A DNA stretch of 63,866 nucleotides, filler included, from Pseudovirgaria hyperparasitica (GCA_010093815.1; 5 parts of 5 records of this genome joined end to end with filler, not necessarily neighbours in it), one strand, 5' to 3'. Positions 1-26,924 are shown, counted from the first letter of the whole stretch. Notes: generated by a model not told the origin, from the letters alone. Made by a program: numbers and translations.

Positions 1-1254
1 GTCGCGATCGGGAGTCATAGTCCGATGTGAGCCTGGTCGCTATCGAACTTGGCCAAAAGCTTTGCTTAGGCATCTGTAGCATTGGCTTTGGCAGCGAGCC
101 CACGACCTGCTCTGCATGAATAAAGCTGCCCGTGTCGCTTTGTTGCACACAGTATGCTGCGTGCGCCCTGTGAGAGGTGGTGGGGAGGACCCTCTCTGCC
201 ACATTAATTCCGGAACACCACAACTGAAGCGAATTCAGCCGCAATTCCAAGCCACCACATCAATAATAAAACATTCTAAGTAGATAGAATTGTGGATAAA
301 GAGCACTTCCACTAATCTTAAAGTTATTAGATATCACTTCTTCATAATCTGGTTGAATATCCGCTGTTATCGTTGCTACCCTCCATGCCGCTTATGCTAC
401 CGGAAAAAATGTGTCGGTCAAGTCCTAGCAACGCTGCTACGCTTTAGCATTTCTTTACTGTTAGAAATCGAAGGAAGATTCATTGCGTATAGTTGGGCCC
501 ACCAAGCGCTCGACGTATGTCAATGGCTCGGTAGCCGCCAAGGGCGTCTCACGAAGAGCCCGCGTGCTTTCGGTCCCATCCCTCTGGGCCAAGGGCATAA
601 GCCACACTTGATACCCACATTGGCTAGGCCCGAGCCGCCGCACAGCACACGATTTAGAGGGAGAGCGCCATGATTCGCCCGGNNNNNNNNNNNNNNNNNN
701 NNNNNNNNNNNNNNNNNNNNNNNNNNNNNNNNNNNNNNNNNNNNNNNNNNNNNNNNNNNNNNNNNNNNNNNNNNNNNNNNNNNNNNNNNNNNNNNNNNNN
801 NNNNNNNNNNNNNNNNNNNNNNNNNNNNNNNNNNNNNNNNNNNNNNNNNNNNNNNNNNNNNNNNNNNNNNNNNNNNNNNNNNNNNNNNNNNNNNNNNNNN
901 NNNNNNNNNNNNNNNNNNNNNNNNNNNNNNNNNNNNNNNNNNNNNNNNNNNNNNNNNNNNNNNNNNNNNNNNNNNNNNNNNNNNNNNNNNNNNNNNNNNN
1001 NNNNNNNNNNNNNNNNNNNNNNNNNNNNNNNNNNNNNNNNNNNNNNNNNNNNNNNNNNNNNNNNNNNNNNNNCCTAATAGGGAATTTCGCTACTTCAACG
1101 GGTAGTGGACCATGGTCCTGTTCAAACAACATGGCGACGTTCACAGGGGGAAGATGGGAAAGAAAGGTTCACGGCAAAAGTCACAAACTATTGCGTCTGA
1201 TCATTCCATCTCTACATGGAGCGGTGACTGCGTTTGAAATGTATCTAAGCGATG

Positions 1255-2648
1255 CTACCCTCTTCGTCTCTGTCTCTTTAATTCCCATATGATCTGAACC
1301 AGCTGCTCGGTAAAAGTCTTCAAAGCATCAAAAGCAACTTTACATTCTCGTGGTGTCCGTGTAATGAGTTCCATATACAGGTCGCATCTCGGGCAGCCTT
1401 TTTCTCCCATGATCGCGCTCTTCTCCTCGGATGTAAACTGGGCGCACAGGAGACAGAAAAGCTCAGGGGAAGTTGTCGGGTCGGCATTATACTATTGGGG
1501 GTTCCGATTCCCCGAGAGGGTGCATAATTGCGATCTAATTGGTGAGTCTCAGCTCGGGAGATTCTTGAATAGACACGAAGGAACGCGAAGCTGACGCACT
1601 AGTGGCGAAGGCGAGACCCTATTCGTTAACCCATGATGAGCTCACGCGTTGGTGGGTGGTTGGGACGTTCGGGTTCCCCCCATTGGCCATTAATCCCGCG
1701 GCCACAGAGAGAACCACAAAGCCATGTGCCGCGTCGGTCAATCACTGCTTAATAGGATTCGAAGACCGAGACATGAGCATGGTTGACGTGTTAATATTTA
1801 CCCGTGTCGGCGAGCCAACTCCTCATGCCCCTAAACTTGTCATTTGTGTCATCACTGGCCTCCAGTCTCTGCGCCGACCCCGTTCCACGCATCTTTGTGC
1901 TCGCCTGCTGGTACTGGACCAAGCAAATAACTCGGGTTTGCCACGATTTCGTCCAGTACTGTCTTTTCCTTGCGGAGGTGGTAAAATCCGTTCTCGTCAA
2001 CGTTGTTGCTGACCTCGGGGAGCATCCTCAGCTACATTGGCTCTGTCCTTTCCCTCTCAAAACGCTCTCGACCCGCTCTAGTATCTCACAGATTACGGCC
2101 CCTCGCCACGAATTTCCCGCTCGGCACCACGTCGAACACGAAAGCGATTATCGCCACGCTCCTTTGTTCTATTCCTATCCAGATGGCGCAGATTCGACAC
2201 CCTAATGGACGCGCTTCCGCCGTGGCATGACCCAGATGCAGAGCGCCCCGTTCGTGCGGCGGTGCAGTCGAGGCAGCTCGTGGCTGAGGTCAGTCGGGTC
2301 GGGATGAGTCGCTACATAGTCGGGGTTCAAGGTGAGGCGCATGCTGCTCTTGCCGTCGAACTGGAAATTCCGTGTGTGCTTGAACCGAGAGGCCATCCAG
2401 GAGGGCTGATCCTGCGCCTCGATCAGAGCCATCACCTCCCACCAGATCCCTACCGCGTCGCCTCAACACTCCATCTGCCATGGGCATACACCGCGAGTTT
2501 GCCGTGCTGAGAGAAATTCGAGGTGGGTGCTGATGTGATGATAGACACCTGCGGGTTTGCTGGCTAGATTTCCAAAAACTCCGACGTGACAGGCTTCGCG
2601 CTGGCTCACCGGGTGGACGTTTTTGCGCAGAGACGACGAGGTCTGCAT
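1255..2648 (-). pseudogene. Degraded gene relic with a C-terminal CxxC...CxxC motif
   Basis: ORFs 2463..2648 and 2202..2435 are in the same frame, separated by one TGA. A further protein-like stretch ends FCLLC...GCPRC...ELKRQRRRG* near 1255. Several in-frame stops; family not recognised. Confidence 0.3.
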
Positions 2649-3546
2649 CAGGTGCTAGAGCGAGGGTGCCAGAACGAGGGCTGTAGCTAGGTAGATTCGG
2701 AGGCTACGTACTTTGCGAGTGGGTTGACGAGGTGCAGAGGCATCAAGAATCGTCGGCGATGTCGTTTCTCGGGCTTTGTGACAAGCTCTAAGAGTAGTTC
2801 ACCAATGATCAGAAACAGAGATCCTGCAAATGAAAATATCTATATAGGCGTCCATTTCGCCTGGCGACGCGTGTGAATCCACGACCTTCCCGTTGTTAGT
2901 CCCCCTCGTATGTGTGTCGGCGGCCTCTTTGTACAATGTCTGGCGGCTATGGTACCAGTACGGTGAGCTGAGCCGTACGGCCCTGACCAAGTTCAAACGC
3001 CCAACACTGGATCGCATGCTTACGAGAGGAGAATGTAGAATATTCCGAAGGTACTCTGTTGCGGATATGGGGACGTGTGGTCCGTGCGTAATCGAGGAGG
3101 CCTGGTTTCGCATTAGCTCTTCTGCCCTCGGCGTCGTGTGAACGAAACTCCGAGAGTTAAGCCATGGTGTGCCAAGACGCTCGGGCGCCTCGGAGTTGAG
3201 CCTAGTCGGAAATGTTGCGCCTGATTTGACAATCCTCTGCGGGACAGCCTTTAATTAAACGCGTGGGCGTACCGAATTTTTTCCAGTCTCATTCTGCGGT
3301 CGCATCTTCACATTCTACAACAACGTGGCATCTTCCTGTCAATCAAGCAACAAAGCTCTCACTCACCACGACCACGAGAATACGACTACGACGTACGCCT
3401 GCGAAACCGTCCGCGAGAAATACTCCAGCCCGGCTGCCAATCCGTCTTCGATCGACCCGTCACTCAACACATCCGAATGGCGGCGGCTACTGCCCGATTT
3501 GCGATCTCTGCAGCTTTGTTTCTGTTCTGCACTACAGAGACTCGCA

Positions 3547-4476
3547 ATGTCGGAGGATGGGAGCCCTCACACTCCTACGCGTTTCCAAAGAGATGTTGAT
3601 CGGGATTTCCAGGATCGGACACCCATCCAACAAAATTATGAAGCGCCCGAAGATACCTCCAAAGTTAACTGCGAGTCTCTCATGGACGAGAACTGGTGGA
3701 CTGGTGTAGACCCGGAGGATGTAGAACGGAGGCGGCGAGAGCAAATCCCGGAACCGCCATACCACAGAGTGCGTATTCACATGCGACTGGACATGATTAA
3801 ACGTTATGCCTCAAAACTTGGGCTATCAGATCTATTCAAAATGATAGATGGTCTGGATAGACTGTTATTTGACGCGGGCGCGGCAACCGACGACTTTGAG
3901 AATGCGCAACGGGAAATTCCTGAGACGGTGACAGAGTTTTGGGACCCAGAACACAGCTTCCACCACAACCGCAAAGAAGAGATCGAACGCTCGAGCTACA
4001 AATATGACGACTCGCCGCTTGCATCACCTACACACACTTCGATACCCCTCGATTCACGCTCGATCAACCGCTCCTCTCCATCCTCCAAGGCAGCTTCCAA
4101 GGATGTTCCCCGGGGAGTCTCCAATGCCCGTGTGCAGAAGAAGCGTCGTGGAATTCACAACGGGACAAGAAGAGAGCAACGAGGCAAAAGGACATCTGAG
4201 CGACGGCAGCCTCTTCTCCAGGCGAGGGAGGAAGAGACAGACACAGGCGTCTCCCTGGAGTCTGCTTCGGGCAGGGGGCCAACCACGACAACCTTGAGCG
4301 AGGAGACTGTCCCCTCTGCGCGAGCCTCACATGGACCGCGCCGATCTGACGGAGTCCGAAAGTCGACGCGGATTCAAGACCGAGAGCAAAAGAAACTCAT
4401 CATCGAAGAGAAACCGAAACCCACCATTGGAGGTTACAACCTTCGCCCCAAAAGTCGTCGCAATGTGACAAAATGA
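3547..4476 (+). CDS. Hypothetical protein with basic, low-complexity C-terminus
   Basis: Long uninterrupted ORF from the ATG at 3547 (MSEDGSPH...). Helical-looking middle and an Arg/Lys-rich tail (KKRR, YNLRPKSRR). Confidence 0.6.
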   Translation: MSEDGSPHTPTRFQRDVDRDFQDRTPIQQNYEAPEDTSKVNCESLMDENWWTGVDPEDVERRRREQIPEPPYHRVRIHMRLDMIKRYASKLGLSDLFKMIDGLDRLLFDAGAATDDFENAQREIPETVTEFWDPEHSFHHNRKEEIERSSYKYDDSPLASPTHTSIPLDSRSINRSSPSSKAASKDVPRGVSNARVQKKRRGIHNGTRREQRGKRTSERRQPLLQAREEETDTGVSLESASGRGPTTTTLSEETVPSARASHGPRRSDGVRKSTRIQDREQKKLIIEEKPKPTIGGYNLRPKSRRNVTK

Positions 4477-4965
4477 GTCAAGTGTGGTCGAAAATATCCC
4501 CGGCAGCGAGGCGTGGCTGGGAATCTCCGAGGCGTCGCGCGACACCCCTAGAAGTGCGGGCTTGGCAGCGGTGGGTTGCCGTTTCACCAACCGCTATGCA
4601 CCCCTCATTGGACACATACGCTCACCCTTGCCCCAAGCCATTTCTTCCTTCGCTCACACCCTCTCACCCTCCCCCTCCCTGATGCTTTAAGTGGCTCGAG
4701 AGAATCCGTCAACAGAGTCAGCCTATTAAGCCGGCCAGCCGTCCGCCCTATCCCCGGGGCTCTTTTGCTCTTTTCCGTTTCCACTCCTCCTGTTTCTCCT
4801 TCAGCAACTCTTCAAGTCATATTGGATTGGCCAATTCACAACCAATTCGCGACCTTTTCGCAATCTGTTCGCAAACCTCGTCGCAATCAAACCCCGACCT
4901 GCCTTACTCTCGATCGCACCGTGCTCTTTCCTGCATGTCTCTCTGAGACGAGGACCAAGAGAAAA

Positions 4966-7957
4966 ATGACATTGTTTGCATACGATGAGAATGCCGCTGG
5001 CGGCGAGGAACCTGCAAGCTCTGTCGCAGACACACCCCTTAAGCCCACTGACCTTGGCGACATCGCGGTGTTTATTGGTCATATCAAGGGCCGGGAAGCA
5101 GAAAGATTTGTCGCACTTAATCAAGAACACATCTGGAAACCGCCTCTCCGCGATGTGTCGCACGAGACCGACGACGAGATTGACGATGAGAAGCCGGAAC
5201 CATGGCGGGGAGGGATTCATACCGCTCTTGATGGTCCCATACTGTGTCATTCCTTTTCGAAGCTTCCTGAACGGTCAAACGGCTGGCGCCACGGCGCAGA
5301 GACAAGGAGATCAAGGAGAAAAGGCGAGAGGCCGTGCGACATGGTGTATCCCCTCAACGCCAAAAGTGGTATCAGCAGCTCGATGTTTCGCATCGACTTT
5401 GCGCCTGACCCCAACAAGAAGCCTACCCCAAGAATCACCCCGGAGATGCGCCACCCCCAACCCCCCATCCGCATCGAGAAGGGAAAAAGGACTCTCAGGC
5501 GAGGCTTCGGTCATAGCGAGACTCTTAACCAGCCAGTTAAGATATATCTCAACGATAACGACCCCGAATGTCTGAGTTTTTGGGTGTGGTCACCTATCCG
5601 CAACAAGGCCGAACAGAAGAAGTTCATCAAACACATCAAGGCCTTTTATGATCGTGGGAATTGCCTGGACGAGACATACTTTCCAGGCATTACATCCGCT
5701 GGCGGGTCCACCATGGCCCCGTCGCGTGCGGGCTACGAAACACGGACAGAACTGACTGGCATGAAATACGAGACACGGATAGGTCTGACTGGCACGGTTT
5801 ACCAGATTGACGGCAAAATGATTTCGCACGGTTCTTTCAGAGACGTGTATCCTGTCAAAATCATCAGTCAACCTGTTTCCAACCTAGTCATGCCAAAGCA
5901 GACCGCCACCCAGAAACGACTGACCGAGATGCTAAAGAAAGAGCCTGAAAAGTACCAACTCAAACCCTATCAACTGAGGCTGGTCGCAAAAGTGGTCAGA
6001 CTAGAGGGAGACGATAGTCAGTCGATGCAGGACTATAGAGAAATGCTGGAAAAAGAAGCTGAGTTCGTACAAAGTCACCCGCATGTGAGTATATCCATCT
6101 TTCTGTCTCCTATTTTTCTTGCTTGCGACCCTCGAGCAGACGCGCACCCTCTGGGCTGGTCCCTTGCTGACGCGATTGTGTTTTCACTAGTTTCACATCA
6201 ACCCGATCTGCGACATAGCCTACGAGCCCGGAGCTGATGACAGACCGTGGCTCATCGAACAACGCCAGGACTACTGCCTCGACGACGAGTGGCTACCCCT
6301 GACTATCGACAAGCTGGACATGGCTAAGCAAATCATTTGCGGCTTAAAGCACATACACGACCACGATTCAGTTCATCGCGACATGAAGGCGGCCAATATA
6401 ATGCTGGAGCTCGTAGAGTTCCACGCCGACGGCCTTGATCTGGGCCGATGGGTCGTCAAATTCACTGATCATGGCATGGTGGCGTCTACTGACCACATGG
6501 TGGAGGAAAGGTGTGGGTCGCCCTGGCATTGCGCGCCTGAGGTCCTGGATTCCAAGCGTTACAGCAAGCCAGCTGACATCTTCTCTACCGGCGTCGTGCT
6601 TTTATGCATGTTTGCGGAATACGACCCCAACCGCCAGCGATCCGACTGGTCGCCGTCCTCGTCTTCCGATGTACGACGATGGATGATCGAAGAAGTTGGT
6701 CCAATCATTGAGAAGAAATGCCCTCAGGAATACCGGGTTCTGCTCAAGGGAATGCTTGAAAAGAGGCCAGAGGCCCGGTGGAACGTGGATAAGTGCCTGA
6801 ATTTCCTGCTGAGAGAGGACCAAAGCCAAACAATTGCTCCGACTTTACCTTGGACAACAGAACCCTTTACAGAGGAACAAAAAAAAGAGAATCTCATGAG
6901 AAAGGAGGAAGCGCTTAGGCGCGATGGTGTGGTGGAGTCCGACGATGGGCTGTCCGACAGTGATAGAACCGTCACCCCAGCAGCTCCAGATCTGCTTGCA
7001 GACGACAGAGTTCTGGAGGATGACGTGCCGGCGACGCCCAAGCTCACTTGCCAGATGCGGCTACCCGTCACGCCTTGCCAAGGGCTCGCAGGGGAAGACG
7101 CACTACCTTCCGCGGCCTGCACGCCCGTTTTTGGCGACGGTGCTCCGGTTCGAGCCGTCCAGCAAGTGGCAGATCAGCCGGCATCTTACGATTTCAGCGT
7201 CATCTGGGACTGGCACGACCCAGAGGGTGTGAGCGGCTCTGGAATTCGCTGGAGCAACCTTCCACCGCCTCGGGTATCCACGAGCGAATTCTCCAAACCG
7301 CTTCCGAAGCCTGGGCTACAGCTACACCTTGGAATTACCGACCTCAACTGGGGTTTCATTTCGCGCCCACAGACCAAGGCACAAATGTTTTTGCCATCAC
7401 AGCAGTTGACCAAGAATATGACAAACGCGATTCAGAGCGCAGGGGACGAGGATTCTGAGGCAGAGACGGAGATATTGGATGGAAACGAAGAGCCTGGAGT
7501 ACCACCCAGCGCCCGCAACGACAGCGATTCTGAAGCAGAGACGGAAATATTGGATGGAGGCGAAGAACCTGAAGTAATACCCGACACCCGTGGCGACAAC
7601 GATGGTGAGGCAGAGACCGAGAGGAATGCTGAAGACGAGGAACCTAAAGAGGTCGCCGACGCCCGCGACAACAGCATTTCTAAGATAGAGACCGAGAGGG
7701 ATGTTAGAGACGGAGAGCCTGAAGCATCACACTTCAGCCGCAGAGTGGCCCAAACGAATGCGCCGACCAACAACGATCATGAGAACGCAGCACCGGACGA
7801 CTACAAACCCATGTTTCTTCCGGAGCTGGTTCAAAACAGGAAGCGCACTGCCTTAGTTTCGACACAGGCCAACAAGAGAAATAGACACAGACCCGACGTT
7901 TCCTTTTCCAAGCCAGTCGACTTGGGTGATGGTCGTTGGGCAAGGGTGATCCGCTAA
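4966..7957 (+). CDS. Ser/Thr protein kinase with degenerate FHA-like N-terminus and acidic repeat tail; exons 4966-6084 and 6191-7957
   Basis: Intron GTGAGT(6085)...GCTGAC...CTAG(6190) joins two ORFs in frame. Kinase motifs: HGSFRDVY, VAK, HRDMKAAN, DHG (for DFG), CGSPWHCAPE, DIFSTG. The N-terminal GWRHG...CD...GISSSMFRIDF resembles fungal FHA domains. Confidence 0.9.
7445..7725 (+). repeat. Four degenerate coding repeats of about 25 aa in the kinase tail
   Basis: DSEAETEILDGNEEP / DSEAETEILDGGEEP / DGEAETERNAEDEEP / ISKIETERDVRDGEP. Confidence 0.8.
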
Positions 7958-9080
7958 GTGCAGAGGCTTTCCGCACAACGATTTATGGCATATATAGAGG
8001 GCACAATGTAGGGGTTCATCACTTTGCTGTTCATGTAAATACCTCTATCGTGGTTTGGAGTTGGGAGCATGGGATGTGTTATTCTGGTTCCAGGCATTTA
8101 CAGGTTGCGTTTGCTGCATTTATCGCATCTAGACTACAGGTAGCATTTGATGAGCGGCATTTTCGAGGAGCAGCATTTGATGGAGTTGGAAGAATCAAAA
8201 TTTATTGCATTTGGTTACCAATACCATCTTTCTGGCAGATTCTGTCGCGCTTTTGCTCTGCACTTTGGCTTCAGTAGACTCAGACATGGCCCCCTCACGG
8301 GGCAGGCTGATGATGCCTGTGCACAGCTTGTTTGGGGCGAACGGGGTGGCGCAAGCGCCCGTAATCCGGCCATGGTGCCGCTGCTGCCAACCAATGCGAG
8401 GTCGCGCCAGCACGACGCGTGCCAGACACGCCGTGATTGGAAGACTCGTCGTGCTGGGACGCGTGCCTGTCTCGTGTCATCGCCAATCGTGTTTTCTTCG
8501 GCTCTCAGACGATCGCCGAGAAATCCCCCCTCTGCAGCCCTGCCCCAGCAACGGGCTGTCCCGTCCTCTCGTATCGCACTGGGTCGATGTGCACACGATA
8601 GCGTGATCCACCCGGCGGGCGGGCCTAATTGGCGGTGACGCGAGCCTGACATGAGGGGGATGTCTTCGCTCACTCTTTCCGGGCGTTTAATCATTTGCCA
8701 TGCTGCCAATCGACAACCCCTTTGCGCAGGCTCTGTGGCTCCAAGACACTACAAAAACATGTTTGTTCCCAATCTATGATATTTCTCTGAATGTACAAAC
8801 ATCTTTCACAAGTTTACAGGCTCTCATAAGGCGTACGACACCTTTCGACATAAGCCCGAGCATCTCCACCCATAGCCCGAACCCTGGATCTCTCACCGCT
8901 GTTCACGGCCTGCGCCCAACGGAGAAGGCCTTCTGGAACGGGCTAGTCTGTAGATCGTTGGTTGGTTGGGAGACCTCTTCGGATGAAGACATGCCCCAGT
9001 CCTCGGGTAAGCGTGAAAGGCGATATATCCTTCTATGGATGTTTTGGCGGCTGATCGGTCTGCGTTCCTTGTTTTAGAAT

Positions 9081-9242
9081 ACCGAGGCGATGCACTATAT
9101 ATGTGTAAGTAGTTGGATAGAAGCTGCATTTAAGTATATACGTACGTGATCGTTTGTCATCATTGCTCGTCTGCGTCGGAGACATAGCATTAGAATTCGG
9201 TGAGTATAATGTAGGATTCACTGCTGCGACTGCCAACGTAAG
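9081..9242 (-). repeat. ~160 bp inverted duplicate of 28434-28595
   Basis: Reverse complement is near-identical; both copies translate LAVAAVNPTLYSPNSNAMSPTQTSNDDKRSRT. Confidence 0.9.
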
Positions 9243-9245
9243 TCA

Positions 9246-10190
9246 CTAACTAACAACCCAGTCAAGGTGCTCTTTTATCTTAGCAACATTATCCTCAGAG
9301 AGTAGGGCAGTCCCGGTGACCTCAATCGTCACTATAGCTGGAGCAGCCGCATAACGTGTCGTGACGCCATCGTCTGCCGGGCTGTACAGAGGCGATGTGC
9401 CCTGGTGCACCAAGCTGGCAAGTGGCGGAGAGGGAGAGGGAGATGAAGCAGAGAAATGCTGCAGCGTAGCGTTCGGTCCGTCATCCGGTGGAGGTGCTCG
9501 GTAGCCGGGGATGGCCGGATCACCGCCGTCGGATGTGGTGCCGGAGCACAAAACAAAATGGATGTCAGCATCGATCGATCCGGCTGCGCATTGGCGTACA
9601 GGCTGATACGGGTTCTCTGTGCCTTTGGCTGGCTCAGGTTCAAAGTATGCATCCCATGGACAGAACTTGCTCTTGGAGCATTGCATCGCACCACATTCGC
9701 GACCATTAGTTCCGTAGACCTTGACGCCCTCGTCCCATCCAGGACACCCTCGACCAGTATGATTTTTGAAAAAGGTATCAACAACGCCAGGGGTACTTGT
9801 TGCACAATCCACGAAAGAGATGTCATAGCTTATAAACCAGTCTTTTCGATCGCCGACATCACGTATGCTATACTCCATTTGGGTTTGCTTGCCCGATTTC
9901 GTCTGGGCTTCGAAGAGCTTTATACTTGTTCCACACTGACAGCCCCTCTCGGGAATGATGACAGGAAAAGATATTTCATGGCCGGCTTTGAGTGCAATTC
10001 CATTCTCAGGATTAGGATCGTCAAATGCAGTCGTATGGTATGCATAAAAGTCCTTGACACAGTAGTTCCTAACAAACACCTTACCTTGAGGAGCGTCGGA
10101 CATTTCGTAGTGTGGGCCAACGCTGGAGTAGTATTCGGCCAATGTCTGTTCAATGAAAGCCATAAAGACAGCGAGAGCGAAGTCCATCAT
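9246..10190 (-). CDS. Secreted Cys-rich Bys1/thaumatin-like protein (copy 1, open frame)
   Basis: Hydrophobic N-terminus MMDFALAVFMAFI. Motif pattern VRNYC...GTSIKL...QMEY...YDISFVDC...DAY...IHFVLC is typical of Bys1/thaumatin-like folds. Ser/Pro-rich tail. Confidence 0.7.
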   Translation of the reverse strand: MMDFALAVFMAFIEQTLAEYYSSVGPHYEMSDAPQGKVFVRNYCVKDFYAYHTTAFDDPNPENGIALKAGHEISFPVIIPERGCQCGTSIKLFEAQTKSGKQTQMEYSIRDVGDRKDWFISYDISFVDCATSTPGVVDTFFKNHTGRGCPGWDEGVKVYGTNGRECGAMQCSKSKFCPWDAYFEPEPAKGTENPYQPVRQCAAGSIDADIHFVLCSGTTSDGGDPAIPGYRAPPPDDGPNATLQHFSASSPSPSPPLASLVHQGTSPLYSPADDGVTTRYAAAPAIVTIEVTGTALLSEDNVAKIKEHLDWVVS

Positions 10191-10456
10191 CGCGAACAAC
10201 TCTCTAGAAGTTATTACAGGGCAGAAAGGAAAAAGGCACGGCAGAACGATATAAGAGTATAGAGTACATTTTTAGAACAGACCCCAAAACTGGTCTGCTC
10301 CTACTTCGGGACAACGGCATCTCTAAAGAAGCCCCTGTTTCATAGTCGACTGGTTCTAGCCCAATTCTTGTATATAACACGACCGTATCTCAAGAAAGAT
10401 CTGCTGTCCTGATTGAAAACAAGCTCCCACTCATTTTCAGTTGCGCAAGTCTGGAA

Positions 10457-13400
10457 ATGCCGCCCTGCAAGCACTCCAGCTGGCTCGGCGCCAAGCGTGT
10501 CCAAGGGGAACCAACCCTGATAGAGACAGACAGGCTGAGCGCCTTGCTTAGTCTCCTACACAACCTAGATACTCAGTATCCAATTTTCTTAGTCACCATC
10601 GGTGATTCAGAGAAGGGGGCGGCGCTGCGAACGCTGTTTGGCTTCAAAGCCTCGTCCAAGGGCAGACGCAGCATCGACAGTATACATCTATACTTGGACT
10701 CATCAACCACGTTTACCGAACGGCCCTGGATTGTGGCAGAGGGAAGATCTCTCCAACTGATCCCGCACACAACCCAAACAGAGGCGGCAGGCCGTCCATG
10801 CCATCGCACAAACGTGCGGTCACTCCGACCTTGTGACGACCACATCGCGACCGATGTCTACGCACGGCTGTTACGGCAGTTCACAAATGTTATCTGTATC
10901 TTTGCATCCGATCTCGGTGGACTGACCAAGACAGCTCGAGAGGTGGTGCGATGGATGGAGCGTTGCCAACCAGCAGCACATCCAGACGGTCCTTGGCCAG
11001 CCCTCGTGGTGGTGACGGAACGGCCCAATGCTAAAAATGCCAAGCGTGATTTCCTTAGCCTTGTCCGCCAGCAAACATCCGTCGACATCCACAAGTGTAT
11101 ATCCAACCTCGAATTCGTCACGCTTCTACCACGTGGTACAATCTCACCTCAAGCTCGCTTCCGGCGCCTGAAGGAGCTCCTGCAGGAGCAGTCGCGTGCA
11201 ACTGCTCATCAGCGTGCCGATCGCGGATGCCTATACTCGGCGAGACACTTCTCCACTCTCCTAAACTCTGCCGTCGCCCACTTTGCTGAATCGTCCGCAG
11301 AGCCGCTCGATTGCGTTATCGCGTCGCGGGCTACTCGTCCGGTACCCAGTGACCTTGGCCAACACTTGGCTAACGTGTTTGCTCTACTCACATCCACATC
11401 ACAGTTAGCCGAGTTCGCTGTGCCAATGCTAGCATCATGTCTCTTTCTCGACAGCTACCCACCGGACTCGCATTGTAAGTAATGGATCTCTTTGTCTCAT
11501 ACCGAGTCTAACAACAAGCAAGGTTTTGAACCGAGTGAGGTTTTCTCGAAGCTCTATGCTCGAGCTTTCGATGGAGTTTGCCCGGACAGTCGCGTAATTG
11601 CCTTTTCCGATTCCGCTGACGTGCTACTACGCACTGGCCTCCTTCAGATGCTACAACAGCATTTTCAACGATACTTCGCGGAGCACACTCAGCCAGACGG
11701 ATTGTCCGCAGTTGCGATTCATCAGAGAAACCTAAAGCGATTCTGCGGTCGGTGGGGGGCCCTACGAAGCGAACGTACCTGCCTCAGCTGTACACTACGC
11801 ACTCCGCAGTATGCACTCGAGTGCAGCCATATGTTGTGCGAAAACTGCGTCGTTATACACGGCGAACAAGAGCAGCACCATCCATATCTATATCGTGTTT
11901 GTGTGTGTCCTCTTTGCCACATGGGAATGCAGCGGGAGATCCGAGTTCGTGTGCATCCACCGACGGCAGGCGTTAGTATCCTTTGCATTGACGGCGGAGG
12001 CACGAGAGGCATCGTACCGTTGACGATCATGCAACGCATCCAGGACTGTATCGACCTCCCAATCCCTTTCCAGCAATATTTCAAGCTCGCGTTCGGTGTG
12101 AGCTCCGGTACGTAGAGGCGAAGAAGTGGAATGGCTGCACTGACCACGGTAGGAGGGCTAATCATCATGAACATGTTTTTCAACGGCTCAACTATTGAGG
12201 AGTCCACTCAGCTGTTTAAGCAGATGGCGGTTGCCATCTTCAACCCGCGTAAAAGCTGGGGTCTGCCGGTACTTTCGCGTTTCTGGCGGTCCGTCATGAC
12301 AATCTTCGCCGATGGGCTGTATCCGGTAAAAGACATCGAGAGTGTGCTGAAGAAGGTCTTTCATCCAGGGCAAAGTATCCTAGGCGCATCCTTTGCGACA
12401 GCTGCAGGGACCAGGATAGGTCTGCCAGTGGCAACAGTGCACACACATCCAGCGTGTCGTATCTTCACGAACTACAACGGGGTTGGTGCGAGGCTTGCGA
12501 GTCCAACAGGTGCGTTCAGCTCCTTGCTTTGCCCCATCGGACCTAACTGCGCTGTGGTAGGTGAGCCCACCATTCGGGCGGAAGATGGATTTGGGAAGGT
12601 GCCGCAATGGGAAGTGTTCGTTAACCTCCCTCCTGTTTTTAGAACTCCCTACTAACCTTACTAAGCGCTCGTGCCATCTCTGCCGCCCCAGGGTCAGATC
12701 ATGATTTCCTACCTCATAGAAAGCACGACTTTGTACATGAACTAATGCCAGTCTAGATTCTTCCCAGCTGCCCACATCGACCAAGTCGGGACGTTCCAAG
12801 ATGCCGGGCCGCTCGAGAACAACCCCATTAGCCAGGCGCTGTCGGAGATGCGCGCGCTGTTTCCGTACGTCGCGGAGCCAGACATGGTCTTGTCACTAGG
12901 TACGGGCGAGCCAGCACCAGCAGCATACGAGGCCGACAAGCAGGACCGCCGTAGCCTGCGCAAGTCTGGCATGTTCACGAGGGCTCGCGATCTCCTTCTG
13001 GAGAAGATGCGTGACGGAACTGTGAGACGTGTATTGAACGGCATCCGCTCCGCGACCCAGACTGCGCAACGCATCCATCGCCTTAATGTTCATTTCGAAG
13101 GGTCGGAGCCGCGGCTTGACGATACCGCTATGATACCTTCGCTCGCGTCCCTGGCTGCAGGTGATGTGAGAATCTCGGGCGGCGTTGAGGCTGTGGCCCA
13201 CGCCGCAGTCGCGTCACTCTTCTATTTTGAGCTAGACAGAATGCCGCAAGGACCAGGGGAATCTCTAGAGGTCGCCGGCAGCATACGCTGCGTCTTGGGC
13301 CCGGCCGACGATGGTTTTGATGCGCTGATAAGGCGGCTCGCAGAGGGCAAGGCATGCTTTATGGTGGATGTGCGGCCTCTTCCCGGTGTGGTTGGCGACC

Positions 13401-13645
13401 GATCCTTCGCCGACGCTAGTGGAAGATTCTGCAAAAGAATCGAATTCGTGTCGCGTGGACAGTTCACATTGTGGCTCAAGTTGGATGATGCGACAACTCA
13501 CATCAGTGGCTCGCCCTTTTCGATTGACCGACTCATCAAAGCCCAAGGCCTGGACGCGCAATTTGGACGCGCTGATCACCAAAAGAGGAAAGCATCATTT
13601 GACCATAATAATGTTGGGCGACGCAAGAAGCAGAGAATTAGTTAG
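10457..13645 (+). CDS. Patatin-like phospholipase with RING-like Zn finger (copy 1, intact, 5 introns)
   Basis: Introns 11475-11522, 12108-12152, 12510-12560, 12616-12665 and ~12693-12757 splice to give DGGGTRG, GVSSG, ARAISAAPGFF and FQDAG..NNP. Zn finger CLSC..LECSHMLCENC..CPLC. Bipartite NLS-like end KRK...RRKKQR. Confidence 0.9.
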
Positions 13646-14329
13646 CGTCAATTTGTATATTATAGATATAGGGGTATATATAGTACGATGGTAATAGATA
13701 AAACTATTGTTGATACTACGGTTCGTGTGCGCGCGCGACATGCGTGCATCAACTGCCAAGCTTTCTCATGTGACTATGGACAAACATATGGAGTCAAAAT
13801 GCCGGCCGAGAGCGTGTCTGTCTCGGTCTTGGCTGGCGTTACCGAAACCTTGCTTTGCTTCCAGAGTTTGATTTCCTGGAACCGGTGCTATCACGAATAT
13901 AGGTTAAATACTACGTGGGCTTATTGTGCGACGCTGGCATCCTATCCGTATATCCATAGTTACATNNNNNNNNNNNNNNNNNNNNNNNNNNNNNNNNNNN
14001 NNNNNNNNNTTAATTAATTAANNNNNNNNNNNNNNNNNNNNNNNNNNNNNNNNNNNNNNNNNNNNACACTGTGAACTAATCTATGAAGATGATGCTCAGT
14101 ACCGTCAGACACACATCTGTTGTTTTCGTAGAACCTGACCCTCTTGACCCTCGTTTACGAGTTTAGTCTCCTCATTATCTGATAGTAACTCTGTTGGGCC
14201 ACGCGGCATATTCGCGGGACACTTGGGTGCCGTGCTCATTGCACGCGACGGCAGGAACACGAGTAGTGTTACTAGAACATCTATAATAGGACATCGCCTG
14301 ATAGCTTCCGGCTCCTGGATTCAAGAACA

Positions 14330-15304
14330 CTAACTAACAACCCAGTCAAGATGCTCTTCTTCAACCCGCTAAGCTATGAAGATCTTAGCAACATTATCCT
14401 CAGAGAGTAGGGCAGTCCCGGTGACCGCAATCGTCACTATAGCTGGAGCAGCCGCATAACGTGTCGTGACGCCATCGTCTGCCGGGCTGTACAGAGGCGA
14501 TGTGCCCTGGTGCACCAAGCTGGCAAGTGACGGAGAGGGAGAGGGAGATGAAGCAGAGAAATGCTGCGGCGTAGCGTTCGGTCCGTCATCCGGTGAAGGT
14601 GCTCGGTAGCCGGGGATGGCCGGATCACCGCCGTCGGATGTGGTGCCGGAGCACAAAACAAAATGGATGTCAGCATCGATCGATCCGGCTGCGCATTGGC
14701 GTACAGGCTGATACGGGTTCTCTGTGCCTTTGGCTGGCTCAGGTTCAAAGTATGCATCCCATGGACAGAACTTGCCCTTGGAGCATTGCATCGCACCACA
14801 TTCGCGACCATTAGTTCCGTAGACCTTGACGCCCTCGTCCCATCCAGGACACCCTTGACCAGTATGATTTTTGAAAAAGGTATCAACGAGGCCAGGAGTA
14901 CTTGTTGCACAATCCACGAAAGAGATGTCATAGCTTATAAACCAGTCTTTCCGATCGCCGACATCACGTATGCTATACTCCATTTGGGTTTGCTTGCCCG
15001 ATTTCGTCTGGGCTTCGAAGAGCTTTATACTTGTTCCACACTGACAGCCCCTCTCGGGAATGATGACAGGAAAAGATATTTCATGCCCGGCTTTGAGTGC
15101 AATTCCATTCTCAGGATTAGGATCGTCAAATGCAGTCGTATGGTATGCATAAAAGTCCTTAACACAGTAGTTCCTAACAAACACCTTACCTTGAGGAGCG
15201 TCGGACATTTCGTAGTGTGGGCCAACGCCGGAGTAGTATTCGGCCAATGTCTATTCAAAAAGAGCAATGAAAGCCATAAAGACAGCGAGAGCGAAGTCCA
15301 TCAT
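14330..15304 (-). pseudogene. Bys1/thaumatin-like gene copy 2 with premature TAG stops
   Basis: Near-identical to copy 1, but has TAG at 15251-15253 (CAG in copy 1) and a second TAG at 14369-14371. Confidence 0.8.
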
Positions 15305-15571
15305 CGCGACCAACTCTCCAGAAGTTATTACAGGGCAGAAAGGAGAAAGGCGCGGCAGAACGATATAAGAGTATAGAGTACATTTTTAGAACAGACCCCA
15401 AAACTTGTCTGCTCCTACTTCGGGACAACGGCATTTCTAAAGAAGTCCCTGTTTCGTAGTCGACTGGTTCTAGCCCAATTCTTGTATAGAACACGACCGT
15501 ATCTCAAGAAAGATCTGCTGTCCTGATATAAAAACAAGCTCCCACTCATTTTCAGTTGCGCAAGTCTGGAA

Positions 15572-18500
15572 ATGCCGCCCTGCAAGCACTCCAGCTGGCT
15601 CGGCGCCAAGCGTGTCCAAGGGGAGCCAACCCTGATAGAGACAGACAGGCTGAGCGCCTTGCTTAGTCTCCTACACAACCTAGATACTCAGTATCCGATT
15701 TTCTTAGTCACCATCGGTGATTCAGAGAAGGGGGCGGCGCTGCGAACGCTGTTTGGCTTCAAAGCCTCGTCCAAGGGCAGACGCAGCATCGACAGTATTC
15801 ATCTATACTTGGATTCATCAACCACGTTTACCGAACGGCCCTGGATTGTGGCAGAGGGAAGATCTCTCCAACTGATCCCGCACACAACCCACACAGAGGC
15901 GGCAGGCTGTCCATGCCATCGCACAAACGTGCGGTCACTCCGACCTTGTGACGACCACATCGCGACCGATGTCTACGCACGGCTGTTACGGCAGTTCACA
16001 AATGTTATCTGTATCTTTGCATCCGATCTCGGTGGACTGACCAAGACAGCTCGAGAGGTGGTGCGATGGATGGAGCGTTGCCAACCAGCAGCACATCCAG
16101 ACGGTCCTTGGCCAGCCCCTCGTGGTGGTGACGGAACGGCCCAATGCTAAAAATGCCAAGCGTGATTCCCTTAGCCTTGTCCGCCAGCAAACATCCGTCG
16201 ACATCCACAAGTGTATATCCAACCTCGAATTCGTCGCGCTTCTACCACGTGGTACAATCTCACCTCAAGCTCGCTTCCGGCGCCTGAAGGAGCTCCTGCA
16301 GGAGCAGTCGCGTGCAACTGCTCTTCAGCGTGCCGATCGCGGATGCCTATACTCGGCGAGACACTTCTCCACTCTCCTGAACTCTGCCATCGCCCACTTT
16401 ACTGAATCGTCCGCAGAGCCGCTCGATTGCGTTATCGCGTCGCGGGCTACTCGTCCGGTACCCAGTGACCTTGGCCAACACTTGGCTAACGTGTTTGCTC
16501 TACTCACATCCACATCACAGTTAGCCGAGTTCGCTGTGCCAATGCTAGCATCATGTCTCTTCCTCGACAGCTACCCACCGGACTCGCATTGTAAGTAATG
16601 GATCTCTTAGTCTCATACCCAGTCTAACAATAAGCAAGGTTTTGAACCGAGTGAGGTCTTCTCGCAGCTCTATGCTCGAGCTTTCGATGGAGTTTGCCCG
16701 GACAGTCGCGTAATTGCCTTTTCCAATTCCGCTGACGTGCTACTACGCACTGTCCTCCTTCAGATGCTACAGGAGCATTTTCAACGATACTTCGCGGAGC
16801 ACAGCCGGCCAGACGGATTGTCCGCAGTTGCGATTCATCAGAGAAACCTAAAGCGATTCTGCGGTCAGTGGGGGGCCCTACGAAGCGAACGTACCTGCCT
16901 CGGCTGTACACTACGCACTCCGCAGTATGCACTCGAGTGCAGCCATATGTTGTGCGAAAACTGCGTCGTTATCCACGGCGAACAAGAGCAGCACCATCCA
17001 TATCTATATCGTGTTTGCGTGTGTCCTCTTTGCCACATGGGAATGCAGCGGGAGATCCGAGTTCGTGTGCATCCACCGACGGCAGGCGTTAGTATCCTTT
17101 GCATTGACGGCGGAGGCACGAGAGGCATCGTACCGTTGACGATCATGCAACGCATCCAGGACTGTATCGGCCTCCCAATCCCTTTCCAGCAATATTTCAA
17201 GCTCGCGTTCGGTGTGAGCTCCGGTACGTAGAGGCGAAGAAGTGGAATGGCTGCGCTGACCACGGTAGGAGGGCTAATCGTCATGAACATGTTTTTCAAC
17301 GGCTCAACTATTGAGGAGTCCACTCAGCTGTTTAAGCAGATGGCGGTTGCCATCTTCAACCCGCGTAAAAGCTGGGGTCTGCCGGTACTTTCGCGTTTTT
17401 GGCGGTCCGTCATGACAATCTTCGCCGATGGGCTGTATCCGGTAAAAGACATTGAGAGTGTGCTGAAGAAGGTCTTTCATCCAGGGCAAAGTATCCTAGG
17501 CGCATCCTTTGCGACAGCTGCAGGGACCAGGATAGGTCTGCCAGTGGCAACAGTGCACACACATCCAGCGTGTCGTATCTTCACGAACTACAACGGGGTT
17601 GGTGCGAGGCTTGCGAGTCCAACAGGTACGTTCAGCTCCTAGCTTTGCCCCATCGGACCTAACTGCGCTGTGGTAGGTGAGCCCACGATTCGGGCGGAAG
17701 ATGGATTTGGGAAGGTGCCGCAATGGGAAGTGTTCGTTAACCTCCCTTCTGTTTTTAGAACTCCCTACTAACCTTACTAAGCGCTCGTGCCATCTCTGCC
17801 GCCCCAGGGTCAGATCATAATTTCCTACCCCATAGAAAGCACGACTTTGTACATTAACTAATGCCAGTCTAGATTCTTCCCAGCTGCCCACATCGACCAG
17901 GTCGGGACATTCCAAGATGCCGGGCCGCTCGAGAACAACCCCCTTAGCCAGGCGCTGTCGGAGATGCGCGCGCTGTTTCCGTACGTCGCGGAGCCAGACA
18001 TGGTCTTGTCACTAGGTACGGGCGAGCCAGCACCAGCAGCATACGAGGCCGACAAGCAGGACCGCCGTAGCCTGCGCAAGTCTGGCATGTTCACGAGGGC
18101 TCGCGATCTCCTTCTGGAGAAGATGCGTGACGGAACTGTGAGACGTGTATTGAACGGCATCCGCTCCGCGACCCAGACTGCGCAACGCATCCATCGCCTT
18201 AATATTCATTTCGAAGGGTCGGAGCCGCGGCTTGACGATACCGCTATGATACCTTCGCTCGCGTCCCTGGCTGCAGGTGATGTGAGAATCTCGGGCGGCG
18301 TTGAGGCTGTGGCCCACGCCGCAGTCGCGTCACTCTTCTATTTTGAGCTAGACAGAATGCCGCAAGGACCAGGGGAATCTCTAGAGGTCGCCGGCAGCAT
18401 ACGCTGCGTCTTGGGCCCGGCCGACGATGGTTTTGATGCGCTGATAAGGCGGCTCGCAGAGGGCAAGGCATGCTTTATGGTGGATGTGCGGCCTCTTCCC

Positions 18501-18761
18501 GGTGTGGTTGGCGACCGATCCTTCGCCGACGCTGGTGGAAGATTCTGCAAAAGAATCGAATTCGTGTCGCGTGGAAAGTTCACATTGTGGCTCAAGTTGG
18601 ATGATGCGACAACTCACATCAGTGGCTCGCCCTTTTCGATTGACCGACTCATCAAAGCCCAAGGCCTGGACGCGCAATTTGGACGCGCTGATCACCAAAA
18701 GAGGAAAGCATCATTTGACCATAATGATGTTGGGCGACGCAAGAAGCAGAGAAGTAGTTAG
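15572..18761 (+). pseudogene. Patatin-like phospholipase copy 2 with a +1 frameshift in exon 1
   Basis: CCCC at 16116-16119 versus CCC in copy 1 splits exon 1 into two ORFs. Otherwise colinear, with the same introns. A homopolymer sequencing error is possible. Confidence 0.75.
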
Positions 18762-19024
18762 CGTCAATCTGTAGATTATAGTTATAGGGGTATATATTGT
18801 GCGCGCGACGTGCATCAACTGCAAAGCTTTCTCATGTAACTATGGACAAACGGATGGAGTCAAAATGCCGGCCGAGAGCGTGTCTGTCTTGCTCTTGGCT
18901 GGCGTTATCGAAACCTTGCCTTGCTTCCATAGCCCGCCTAACCATGTTTCCTATGAGCGCCCTGTCATCGAGAATGAGGTGCAAGTTCTATCTCGGACTT
19001 TGAAACACGGTGTANNNNNNNNNN

Positions 19025-21384
19025 CTGAATCGTCCGCAGAGCCGCTCGATTGCGTTATCGCGTCGCGGGCTACTCGTCCGGTACCCAGTGACCTTGGCCA
19101 ACACTTGGCTAACGTGTTTGCTCTACTCACATCCACATCACAGTTAGCCGAGTTCGCTGTGCCAATGCTAGCATCATGTCTCTTTCTCGACAGCTACCCA
19201 CCGGACTCGCATTGTAAGTAATGGATCTCTTTGTCTCATACCGAGTCTAACAACAAGCAAGGTTTTGAACCGAGTGAGGTTTTCTCGAAGCTCTATGCTC
19301 GAGCTTTCGATGGAGTTTGCCCGGACAGTCGCGTAATTGCCTTTTCCGATTCCGCTGACGTGCTACTACGCACTGGCCTCCTTCAGATGCTACAACAGCA
19401 TTTTCAACGATACTTCGCGGAGCACACTCAGCCAGACGGATTGTCCGCAGTTGCGATTCATCAGAGAAACCTAAAGCGATTCTGCGGTCGGTGGGGGGCC
19501 CTACGAAGCGAACGTACCTGCCTCAGCTGTACACTACGCACTCCGCAGTATGCACTCGAGTGCAGCCATATGTTGTGCGAAAACTGCGTCGTTATACACG
19601 GCGAACAAGAGCAGCACCATCCATATCTATATCGTGTTTGTGTGTGTCCTCTTTGCCACATGGGAATGCAGCGGGAGATCCGAGTTCGTGTGCATCCACC
19701 GACGGCAGGCGTTAGTATCCTTTGCATTGACGGCGGAGGCACGAGAGGCATCGTACCGTTGACGATCATGCAACGCATCCAGGACTGTATCGACCTCCCA
19801 ATCCCTTTCCAGCAATATTTCAAGCTCGCGTTCGGTGTGAGCTCCGGTACGTAGAGGCGAAGAAGTGGAATGGCTGCACTGACCACGGTAGGAGGGCTAA
19901 TCATCATGAACATGTTTTTCAACGGCTCAACTATTGAGGAGTCCACTCAGCTGTTTAAGCAGATGGCGGTTGCCATCTTCAACCCGCGTAAAAGCTGGGG
20001 TCTGCCGGTACTTTCGCGTTTCTGGCGGTCCGTCATGACAATCTTCGCCGATGGGCTGTATCCGGTAAAAGACATCGAGAGTGTGCTGAAGAAGGTCTTT
20101 CATCCAGGGCAAAGTATCCTAGGCGCATCCTTTGCGACAGCTGCAGGGACCAGGATAGGTCTGCCAGTGGCAACAGTGCACACACATCCAGCGTGTCGTA
20201 TCTTCACGAACTACAACGGGGTTGGTGCGAGGCTTGCGAGTCCAACAGGTGCGTTCAGCTCCTTGCTTTGCCCCATCGGACCTAACTGCGCTGTGGTAGG
20301 TGAGCCCACCATTCGGGCGGAAGATGGATTTGGGAAGGTGCCGCAATGGGAAGTGTTCGTTAACCTCCCTCCTGTTTTTAGAACTCCCTACTAACCTTAC
20401 TAAGCGCTCGTGCCATCTCTGCCGCCCCAGGGTCAGATCATGATTTCCTACCTCATAGAAAGCACGACTTTGTACATGAACTAATGCCAGTCTAGATTCT
20501 TCCCAGCTGCCCACATCGACCAAGTCGGGACGTTCCAAGATGCCGGGCCGCTCGAGAACAACCCCATTAGCCAGGCGCTGTCGGAGATGCGCGCGCTGTT
20601 TCCGTACGTCGCGGAGCCAGACATGGTCTTGTCACTAGGTACGGGCGAGCCAGCACCAGCAGCATACGAGGCCGACAAGCAGGACCGCCGTAGCCTGCGC
20701 AAGTCTGGCATGTTCACGAGGGCTCGCGATCTCCTTCTGGAGAAGATGCGTGACGGAACTGTGAGACGTGTATTGAACGGCATCCGCTCCGCGACCCAGA
20801 CTGCGCAACGCATCCATCGCCTTAATGTTCATTTCGAAGGGTCGGAGCCGCGGCTTGACGATACCGCTATGATACCTTCGCTCGCGTCCCTGGCTGCAGG
20901 TGATGTGAGAATCTCGGGCGGCGTTGAGGCTGTGGCCCGCGCCGCAGTCGCGTCGCTCTTCTATTTTGAGCTAGACAGAATGCCGCAAGGACCAGGGGAA
21001 TCTCTAGAGGTCGCCGGCAGCATACGCTGCGTCTTGGGCCCGGCCGACGATGGTTTTGATGCGCTGATAAGGCGGCTCGCAGAGGGCAAGGCATGCTTTA
21101 TGGTGGATGTGCGGCCTCTTCCCGGTGTGGTTGGCGACCGATCCTTCGCCGACGCTAGTGGAAGATTCTGCAAAAGAATCGAATTCGTGTCGCGTGGACA
21201 GTTCACATTGTGGCTCAAGTTGGATGATGCGACAACTCACATCAGTGGCTCGCCCTTTTCGATTGACCGACTCATCAAAGCCCAAGGCCTGGACGCGCAA
21301 TTTGGACGCGCTGATCACCAAAAGAGGAAAGCATCATTTGACCATAATAATGTTGGGCGACGCAAGAAGCAGAGAATTAGTTAG
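19025..21384 (+). CDS. Patatin-like phospholipase copy 3 (5' end lost in a gap)
   Basis: Almost identical to 11286-13645; H-to-R change near 20939. Begins at an N gap. Confidence 0.8.
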
Positions 21385-21394
21385 CGTCAATTTG

Positions 21395-21820
21395 TATATT
21401 ATAGATATAGGGGTATATATAGTACGATGGTAATAGATAAAACTATTGTTGATACTACGGTTCGTGTGCGCGCGCGACATGCGTGCATCAACTGCCAAGC
21501 TTTCTCATGTGACTATGGACAAACATATGGAGTCAAAATGCCGGCCGAGAGCGTGTCTGTCTCGGTCTTAGCTGGCGTTACCGAAACCTTGCTTTGCTTC
21601 CAGAGTTTGATTTCCTGGAACCGGTGCTATCACGAATATAGGTTAAATACTACGTGGGCTTATTGTGCGACGCTGGCATCCTATCCGTATATCCATAGTT
21701 ACATCCATGGGAAAGCTTGGCGCCCGATGTTCGCCCATGTCACCAACACACACGATTTAGTATAATTAACATTTTTATCTATTACCGCCGTATAATACCT
21801 ATATAGCTATAAAAATTACT
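21395..21820. mobile_element. MITE-like element with long imperfect terminal inverted repeats
   Basis: Left arm GGTAATAGATAAAA...GCCAAGCTTTCTCATGTGACTATGGA mirrors right arm TCCATAGTTACAT...GAAAGCTTGGC...TTTTATCTATTACC. Related arms at 13655-13965, 18775-18850 and 46145-46240. Confidence 0.55.
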
Positions 21821-26812: not shown

Positions 26813-26924
26813 GCTTACGAGTCAGGTAGGGCTATTTCGCATAAAGTACCAAGTTGCGAAGTATACCCCAGGTAAAGAGCTCATCGGGAGTGACTTACGG
26901 TAATGTATGCTCAGTCACTAAGGC

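Follow-up and report, generated by a model that had tools for sequence, protein, structure and literature searches.

Does a close head-to-head arrangement of two genes, repeated as one block, signal that their products work together? The question is raised by a locus of Pseudovirgaria hyperparasitica, a Dothideomycete, in which a small gene for a Bys1-like protein and a large gene for a patatin-domain protein diverge from start codons only 266 bp apart. We studied this locus within a 63,866-base stretch of DNA, here called the window, which consists of five assembled pieces joined by an artificial linker. A first-pass annotation of the sequence described a secreted Bys1/thaumatin-like gene and a RING-patatin gene, duplicated as a unit, and proposed that they form a co-regulated two-gene module. 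Its description of the two genes, of the spacing of their start codons and of their recurrence holds, and the module that it proposed finds no support. We think it probable that the locus is a lineage-specific juxtaposition of a Bys1-like gene and a patatin gene within a segment of 4.6 kb or more that was amplified recently, and that the two genes are most likely functionally independent neighbours. This reading builds on the anatomy of the locus, its copies, the splicing of the large gene, the predicted folds and sequence motifs, and the lack of conserved linkage.

Beyond the window, the pairing was not found. We searched Joint Genome Institute (JGI) metagenome contigs with an alignment of the patatin family and recovered 76 loci totalling 641,080 bp, whose flanks extend to 10 kb at most and which hold relatives at 22-49% identity in the best tblastn segment. 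The linkage test ran outward from these patatin-family loci; the N-terminus of the patatin protein was matched in 31 of them, and the 24 among these with at least 1200 bp of upstream sequence were regarded as testable. When a hidden Markov model (HMM) of the Bys1-like family was applied to the six-frame open reading frames (ORFs), it recovered only the window's own two copies at E<=0.01, with no Bys1-like ORF in any of the 76 loci or of the 24 testable ones. With filters off and the threshold relaxed to E<=10, the search returned noise only, the best foreign score being 7.4 bits. As far as these 76 metagenome loci reach, the homologues are unlinked elsewhere, which is the first of the two outcomes that the first-pass annotation had itself named as refuting its module.

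The idea of a head-to-head partner nevertheless survives in part, since the patatin family retains a partner of this kind, although one that encodes another small protein and is not found in the window. An all-against-all comparison of upstream ORFs revealed that 17 of the 24 testable loci have a small Cys/His-rich ORF immediately upstream, in every case on the opposite strand; without the near-duplicates L015, L038 and L046, the count is 15 of 21. An HMM of this partner reached 22 loci in all, among them three with short flanks (L021, L022 and L056), one in which the partner lies downstream (L035) and one with a weak fragment (L027). The same HMM matched nothing in the six frames of the window (ORFs of at least 20 residues, E<=0.01). 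In 13 loci, 211-447 bp separate the two ATGs, and in two others the distance is 1.1-1.8 kb, so that the spacing in the window is typical of the conserved pairs. As a control for general synteny, we compared the 4 kb downstream of the patatin gene, where the largest shared ORF family spans 2 of 19 loci.

The partner proteins are 129-202 residues long and share an invariant CxxC...CxxxxC arrangement (C28, C31, C56 and C61) together with R35 and R58. Other motifs include HHYHH, one or more occurrences of AELPG..GR.ELP, and a PPPV..KP end. Pfam assigned no family above its cut-offs to eight of these proteins and returned weak zinc-finger matches only, the ESM Atlas gave no usable match for the partner, and our literature searches found no paper on it. 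In named genomes it is recorded as a 'hypothetical protein', for example a protein of 191 residues in a Cadophora species. The upstream region of six loci also holds a ferric-reductase/NOX-like gene (Ferric_reduct plus FAD_binding_8), 2-4 kb from the patatin gene and in either orientation, and in the public Pyrenophora model P0006 such a gene is fused to the patatin protein.

Given this distribution, the position of the window protein within its family matters. A maximum-likelihood tree of the N-terminal domain places the window protein inside a well-supported group of 14 rows, and 11 of these rows have the upstream partner; its end branch is very long (1.66, the median being 0.29), and its precise position in the tree is unsure. 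Because the window protein is nested among partner-bearing rows, the absence of the partner from the window is most simply a derived loss or replacement. We envisage that the Bys1-like gene took over, at a similar ATG spacing, the slot that in most relatives is held by the small, zinc-ribbon-like and His-rich gene, and that the block with both genes would then have been amplified in this genome and have partly decayed.

The amplification is visible in the assembly itself. Self-BLAST aligns 9277-13681 with 14382-18797 at 98.03% identity (76 mismatches and 3 gap openings in 4416 columns), and hand alignment of the block ends extends the homology to 9244-13866 and 14330-18932, or about 4.6 kb, across a 23-bp indel on the left and indels of 44 bp and 6 bp on the right (copy 1 versus copy 2). 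The left end of homology, at 9244, lies 2 bp past the stop codon of the Bys1-like ORF (9246-9248), and the flanks beyond the block are unrelated on both sides, just as the first-pass annotation had described them. Its statement that the pair was duplicated as a unit stands in the sense that the repeated segment spans both genes, and the copies show no more than that; the two genes may have been copied together only because the duplicated block includes them both. A third, partial copy follows directly after a 10-N scaffold gap and contains the patatin gene from inside exon 1 to its stop at 21384, and then 320 bp more. Over its 2680 bases it differs from the end of copy 1 at 3 positions (99.89% identity). 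Another partial copy of the Bys1-like gene, the public model P0002, is annotated with 97% identity on a 5,702-bp scaffold outside the window.

Unassembled copies are likewise suggested by the contigs of four public runs (X1 to X4), which we placed on 8500-13965. In DNA run X1, depths of 1349-2309 for the listed unitigs inside the pair contrast with a depth of 300 for the one long unitig of the left flank; the corresponding values in DNA run X4 are 1077-1827 and 273. These ratios of about 4-8 fold were compared per unitig within one run only and serve as a hint, as summed depth does not equal copy number. Loose contig ends occur at 9242/9244, 9444, 10286, 11427, 13681 and 13743, those at 9242 and 9244 in all four runs, and they mark additional copies that break off elsewhere. 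In some contigs, variants are combined in a way that neither assembled copy shows. Of the 9 differences that distinguish copy 2 in 10685-11427, X4 record 26 has 5, and X4 record 24 carries the 9-bp insertion of copy 2 but 12 differences, two of them new. The hint from depth thus agrees with the loose ends and the mixed-variant contigs in pointing to a multi-copy state.

The copy number and sharp homology ends might be explained if the block were a mobile element or the cargo of one, a possibility that gains some appeal from a 166-bp repeat that abuts the left end of copy 1 and has an inverted copy elsewhere in the window, and from the small, repeat-rich scaffolds of which the window is built. 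However, we found neither terminal inverted repeats nor long direct repeats at the block ends, and no target-site duplication was identified at the block. The flanking stretches 1-9200 and 21700-31927 hold 22 ORFs of 130 residues or more, and Pfam was run on 17 of them (five that overlap longer ORFs were left out). It detected no transposase, integrase or recombinase family among the 17, its sole match being a protein kinase at 6191-7954. We therefore regard a mobile origin as unlikely.

Several other features of these surroundings deserve mention in their own right. The last exon of the public model P0001 for the copy-1 Bys1-like gene is drawn from the 166-bp element, and 27774-28154 (minus strand), near the inverted element copy, has a peptide stretch in common with the C-terminal extension of P0002. 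Within the ORF at 6191-7954, four 75-bp tandem repeats (7451-7750, 61-100% identical) encode an acidic repeat on the C-terminal side of the protein kinase gene just upstream of the pair. In the later small scaffolds, 46000-52000 and 60000-62000 are strongly AT-rich (GC 0.21-0.37), with internal repeats at 77-92% identity (51506-52535 versus 60102-62382), and these stretches may be repeats degraded by repeat-induced point mutation (RIP).

The structure of the assembly raises the separate concern that the copies are a single locus assembled more than once, either as haplotypes or as unmerged overlaps, with no real duplication behind them. Because a linker lies between them, copy 1 and copy 2 are on separately assembled scaffolds, and these are small and joined in the window by that linker only. 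The first piece (1-13965) holds an inner gap of 390 N, and the second (14066-31927; 17,862 bp) an inner gap of 10 N at 19015-19024. Linkers of identical construct occur at 31928-32027, 46973-47072 and 61964-62063. P0001 is placed on an 18,786-bp scaffold inside which the window begins. The near-identity of the third copy to the end of copy 1, immediately after a scaffold gap, does resemble one locus seen twice, and the single-base frameshift of copy 2 lies in a run of C and is absent from the run contigs. However, 76 substitutions and several indels separate copy 1 from copy 2, and the sequences flanking them are different on either side. In addition, the further variant P0002 is annotated on a third scaffold, both DNA runs show the raised depth, and the contigs show more than two variant combinations and several distinct break points. 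An artefact of this kind is accordingly, in our judgement, distinctly unlikely. Judging by the scaffold join in the second piece, copy 2 seems to be followed downstream by a copy-1-like unit.

Copy 2 is damaged in both genes; like the scaffold joins and the two further partial copies, this damage goes unmentioned in the first-pass annotation. In its Bys1-like ORF, besides the early stop codon and in-frame insertion listed in Table 1, the 23-bp indel alters the last codons. In its patatin gene, the public model P0003 steps round the frameshift by means of an extra intron, with the result that about 40 residues of the GTPase-fold domain are read out of frame and no longer match the homologues. 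An apparent premature TAG at 17640-17642 in the same gene proved harmless, as it falls inside intron 3. The substitutions between copies 1 and 2 comprise 52 transitions and 24 transversions. We considered RIP as their source and rejected it, given that the transitions run both ways (A>G 18, G>A 14, T>C 11 and C>T 9). The ratio of non-synonymous to synonymous differences per site (pN/pS) between the copies is about 0.47 for the patatin gene (16 synonymous and 23 non-synonymous differences) and 0.48 for the Bys1-like gene (5 and 8), and 20 of 524 non-coding sites differ.

The identity of the small gene becomes apparent through its homologues. The copy-1 gene is a single ORF of 314 codons, whose product agrees at every position with residues 1-314 of P0001; the version of 340 residues that P0001 obtains through a 3' intron was set aside, as no spliced joint for it occurs in the contigs. 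Pfam matched no family in either version, even at E<=1, and the gathering score of PF04681 (Bys1) was not reached. However, a phmmer scan of 1.84 billion representatives returned 42 proteins at E<=0.001, with best foreign matches of 1.4e-35 and 5e-35, and 36 of 41 aligned homologues match PF04681 (best 3.6e-23). A profile of the family matched, among solved structures, MoHrip2 (5fid) at 1.1e-7 and osmotin at 0.012.

Structural modelling points the same way. An AlphaFold2 model of the protein (mean predicted local distance difference test score, pLDDT, 76.6) folds residues 37-214, approximately, into a beta-rich core, which is followed by a Pro/Ser-rich tail, disordered at 234-297, and by a terminal helix; the core is mostly at pLDDT 86-98 per 10-residue block, with block 131-140 at 77. 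Its top Foldseek match is 5fid (6.8e-7; template modelling score, TM, normalized to the target 0.76), and thaumatin, osmotin and other thaumatin-like proteins follow at 4e-6 to 1e-4. By transitive homology and predicted fold, the small gene is thus a divergent member of the Bys1 family with a thaumatin-like fold, in agreement with its initial description. MoHrip2, which ranks first by profile as well as by model, is described as a secreted elicitor of Magnaporthe oryzae with a thaumatin-like beta-barrel (PMC4960229). The window protein is unlike the Bys1 family as defined by PF04681 in that it falls under every Pfam threshold and carries an extra C-terminal tail of about 95 residues, most of it disordered. 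Residues 3-24 are hydrophobic, are modelled as a helix and align with the hydrophobic leaders of homologues, from which we would conclude that the protein is probably secreted, and that its place is extracellular or in the cell wall.

The large gene has six exons and an open spliced frame of 976 codons plus a stop. All five GT..AG joints are present in contigs of runs X2 and X3 and in none of the DNA runs X1 and X4. Runs X2 and X3 come from one sample whose kind is not on record and which we take as RNA-type from these joints; since the joints occur in these two runs only, X2 and X3 hold complementary DNA and the large gene is transcribed and spliced.

Exon 1 encodes an N-terminal domain of 339 residues, on which the first-pass annotation is silent and in which Pfam finds no family. 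AlphaFold2, supplied with an alignment of 25 sequences, modelled it with a pLDDT of 83.7 and a predicted TM score of 0.83, and Foldseek returned 117 PDB matches at E<=0.001. The top matches are GBP5 (7e59, 4e-7), GBP1, GBP2, atlastin-1/3 and RNF112 (9jjx, 2.4e-5), which together range from 4e-7 to 1e-4 with TM 0.38-0.49 and sequence identities of 9-12%. On the strength of this model, the domain has the large-GTPase fold of the dynamin superfamily. The canonical G1 P-loop GxxxxGK[ST] is absent; the family has IGNxxKS in its place and the window protein IGDSEKG (IGDSEKGAAL). Within the family consensus LIGNxxKxxAL, G49 is invariant and K53 nearly so, and a D-x-G-G stretch (D152, G154 and G155) is conserved.

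Behind this domain lies a cysteine-rich finger with C3HC4 spacing, six of whose ligands are invariant in 11 homologues (C411, C414, C425, H427, C430 and C433 in P0003 numbering), the last Cys pair being missing in 3 of the 11 aligned gene models. Pfam RING models match the large protein at E 0.008-0.1, under their cut-offs, and the family profile matches the RINGs of TRIM5 (0.0044), TRIM34 (0.0062) and BIRC7 (0.0074). We grade the finger as RING-like: the C3HC4 spacing is present and the Pfam cut-offs are not reached. The patatin core is recognized without difficulty, PF01734 matching P0003 at 1.2e-15 (58.6 bits, cut-off 27.7). Across 11 homologues there is little or no variation in the catalytic elements, namely the glycine-rich loop, the GxSxG serine and the DxG aspartate, and the family profile finds the patatin structures iPLA2beta (6aun, 3.5e-15), CapV (8zr9, 4.5e-14) and Pat17 (1oxw), in a range that extends to 3.8e-10. 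Judged by its sequence, the protein carries a patatin phospholipase with an intact Ser-Asp dyad and is apparently an active lipase. The earlier description of a RING-patatin gene is sound, with the finger graded as RING-like. At E<=1, Pfam adds to the patatin domain of P0003, P0004 and P0005 only weak, sub-threshold RING and ArfGap matches.

The protein also has a conserved C-terminal domain ending in a basic tail, and it has no leader. Full-length homologues are about 920-990 residues long; eight full or near-full-length ones are 37-44% identical and the most distant is 28% identical. They occur in Leotiomycetes, Dothideomycetes, Sordariomycetes and one Geoglossum genome, where they are named lysophospholipase-like or hypothetical. 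The large gene therefore belongs to a conserved family of Pezizomycotina that combines a GTPase fold, a RING-like finger, a patatin domain and a C-terminal domain, a combination for which our literature searches found no describing paper. The features of the locus and of related loci are collected in Table 1.

Table 1. Positions of the gene pair, its parts and copies in the window, and of neighbouring genes in related metagenome loci
Feature	Position	Strand	Remarks
Bys1-like gene, copy 1	9246-10190	minus	single ORF of 314 codons
Interval between start codons	10191-10456		266 bp; putative shared divergent promoter region
Large gene, copy 1	10457-13645	plus	six exons, 976 codons + stop, open spliced frame
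Exons of large gene	10457-11474, 11523-12107, 12153-12509, 12561-12615, 12666-12692, 12757-13645	plus	from spliced contigs
Introns of large gene	11475-11522, 12108-12152, 12510-12560, 12616-12665, 12693-12756	plus	GT..AG joints
N-terminal domain	10457-11474	plus	exon 1, 339 residues; predicted GBP/atlastin/RNF112-like large-GTPase fold (AlphaFold2 + Foldseek)
RING-like C3HC4 finger	11780-11917	plus	residues 426-471, pattern match
Patatin core	11990-12808	plus	interrupted by four introns; DGGGTRG 496-502, GVSSG 531-535, DAG 696-698
Repeated element, 166 bp	9077-9242		abuts left end of copy 1; inverted copy 28434-28598, 98.8%
Artificial linker	13966-14065		N44 + TTAATTAATTAA + N44; separates scaffolds of copy 1 and copy 2
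Copy 2 of gene pair	14330-18932		self-BLAST + end alignment; other scaffold than copy 1
Bys1-like ORF, copy 2	14369-15304	minus	9-bp in-frame insertion, CAG>TAG stop at codon 18, 3' 23-bp indel
Patatin gene, copy 2	15572-18761	plus	1-bp insertion at 16116 (extra C in C run, exon 1)
Third, partial copy	19025-21704	plus	directly after 10-N scaffold gap
Partner gene, example	L003:9098-9670	minus	head to head with GTPase-RING-patatin gene
Equivalent partner ORFs	L001, L007, L010, L012, L013, L021, L024, L025, L026
Equivalent partner ORFs, continued	L028, L031, L033, L036, L037, L038, L045, L046
Ferric-reductase/NOX-like ORFs	L003:5862-6689, L007:1068-1844, L014:5289-6044, L028:3889-4704, L038:6501-7316

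Transcription of the locus does not stop at the boundaries of the two genes. The contigs of X2 and X3 extend unbroken over 9277-13681, and X3 record 18 runs from 9847, inside the Bys1-like ORF, through the whole interval to 11474, where it continues across the intron-1 splice. This shows that no part of the 266-bp interval is untranscribed, as would result from overlapping divergent transcripts or from a long upstream transcript. The contigs are unstranded, carry no expression level and represent one sample and one condition. We suppose that the two genes of the window happen to share a short divergent promoter region, and that their products probably end up in different compartments, as a hydrophobic leader and an extracellular-type fold on one side are set against a basic tail and no leader on the other.

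The least probable alternative, and in our view a very unlikely one, is that the Bys1-like and RING-patatin proteins cooperate, as effector and guard or as antagonism and immunity functions, under co-regulation from the interval: the head-to-head spacing, the RNA-type contigs spanning both genes, the retention of the pair in at least two assembled copies, the family's habit of a head-to-head partner at such spacing (by which the slot may matter functionally) and the role of a patatin domain in executing cell death in PLP-1 all speak for it, but none of the 24 testable loci, and none of the 76 in all, has a Bys1-like neighbour, the copying of one block suffices for the copies to share both genes, copy 2 has lesions in both, and the products would be separated by compartment.

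Some observations nevertheless weigh against reading the two genes as a chance, independent juxtaposition. The linkage loci are metagenome relatives of limited identity and include no close relative of this species. The ATG spacing is like that seen in the conserved pairs, and the promoter side of the former partner may have passed to the Bys1-like gene, which would thus be co-expressed with the patatin gene; the gap-free coverage of both genes and the interval by the same RNA-type sample is compatible with co-regulation. The evidence of decay in copy 2 is also not without ambiguity, as its 1-bp insertion is absent from every contig of the four runs and may be an assembly error. The pN/pS values, although based on small counts, are compatible with some constraint on both genes. 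Finally, the copy number rests on unitig depth.

Comparison with known systems helps to place the patatin protein. That patatin domains take part in fungal cell death, as the first-pass annotation stated, agrees with the PLP-1/SEC-9 system of Neurospora crassa; PLP-1 is a NOD-like receptor (NLR) with an N-terminal patatin domain whose activity is needed for regulated cell death (PMC12881547). The likeness lies in a patatin domain within a multidomain protein and in a genetically linked partner gene. However, we rejected membership of the PLP-1-type NLR class, because Pfam at E<=1 found no NB-ARC or NACHT domain and no TPR, WD or ANK repeats in P0003, P0004 and P0005. In addition, the patatin domain of the window protein is central, behind the GTPase-fold domain and the RING-like finger, and in place of the SNARE protein SEC-9 its neighbour is Bys1-like in the window and a small zinc-ribbon-like gene in relatives.

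For the N-terminal domain, the predicted fold is like that of RNF112 (neurolastin), GBPs and atlastins, and RNF112, to judge by the titles of its PDB entries, also combines a large-GTPase domain with a RING finger. Unlike the window family, these proteins have no patatin domain, and the window family differs further by the low sequence identity and by the lack of a canonical G1 motif. The catalytic elements (Gly-rich loop, GxSxG serine and DxG aspartate) are in turn shared with iPLA2beta, CapV and Pat17, although iPLA2beta and CapV have other accessory domains than the window family. Ankyrin repeats are present in iPLA2beta, and CapV is not known to carry any. By analogy, the closest functional parallels would be PLP-1 and regulated patatins such as CapV. 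We envisage a regulated intracellular effector of the phospholipase A type, in which the GTPase-fold and RING-like domains could set the activity or location of the patatin domain.

A wider reading takes the partner into account. It is quite possible, although we hold this view tentatively, that the lipase family and its small partner constitute an undescribed conserved two-gene system, and that the Pseudovirgaria lineage represents a natural swap of partners. If so, the small protein might be a regulator, a substrate or an inhibitor of a ubiquitin-linked lipase effector whose role could lie in cell-autonomous defence or cell death. In the lineage of the window, the small gene would then have been lost, the Bys1-like gene would have taken its promoter side, and the lipase gene would have been amplified and have evolved fast.

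What the locus means can be stated on two levels. As proposed, the pair of a Bys1-like gene and a patatin gene is ordinary: an effector/guard relationship is unsupported, and the pairing is local, in a repeated and partly decayed block spread over small scaffolds. Of interest is the family itself, which is conserved in fungi and in which a GTPase fold of the immune type, a RING-like finger and an apparently active patatin lipase occur in one protein. Its head-to-head partner has been retained over large evolutionary distances although the remaining neighbourhood has not, which is unusual in filamentous fungi. The family-typical pair is a testable two-gene unit, for which the partner-less lineage of the window could serve as a natural contrast.

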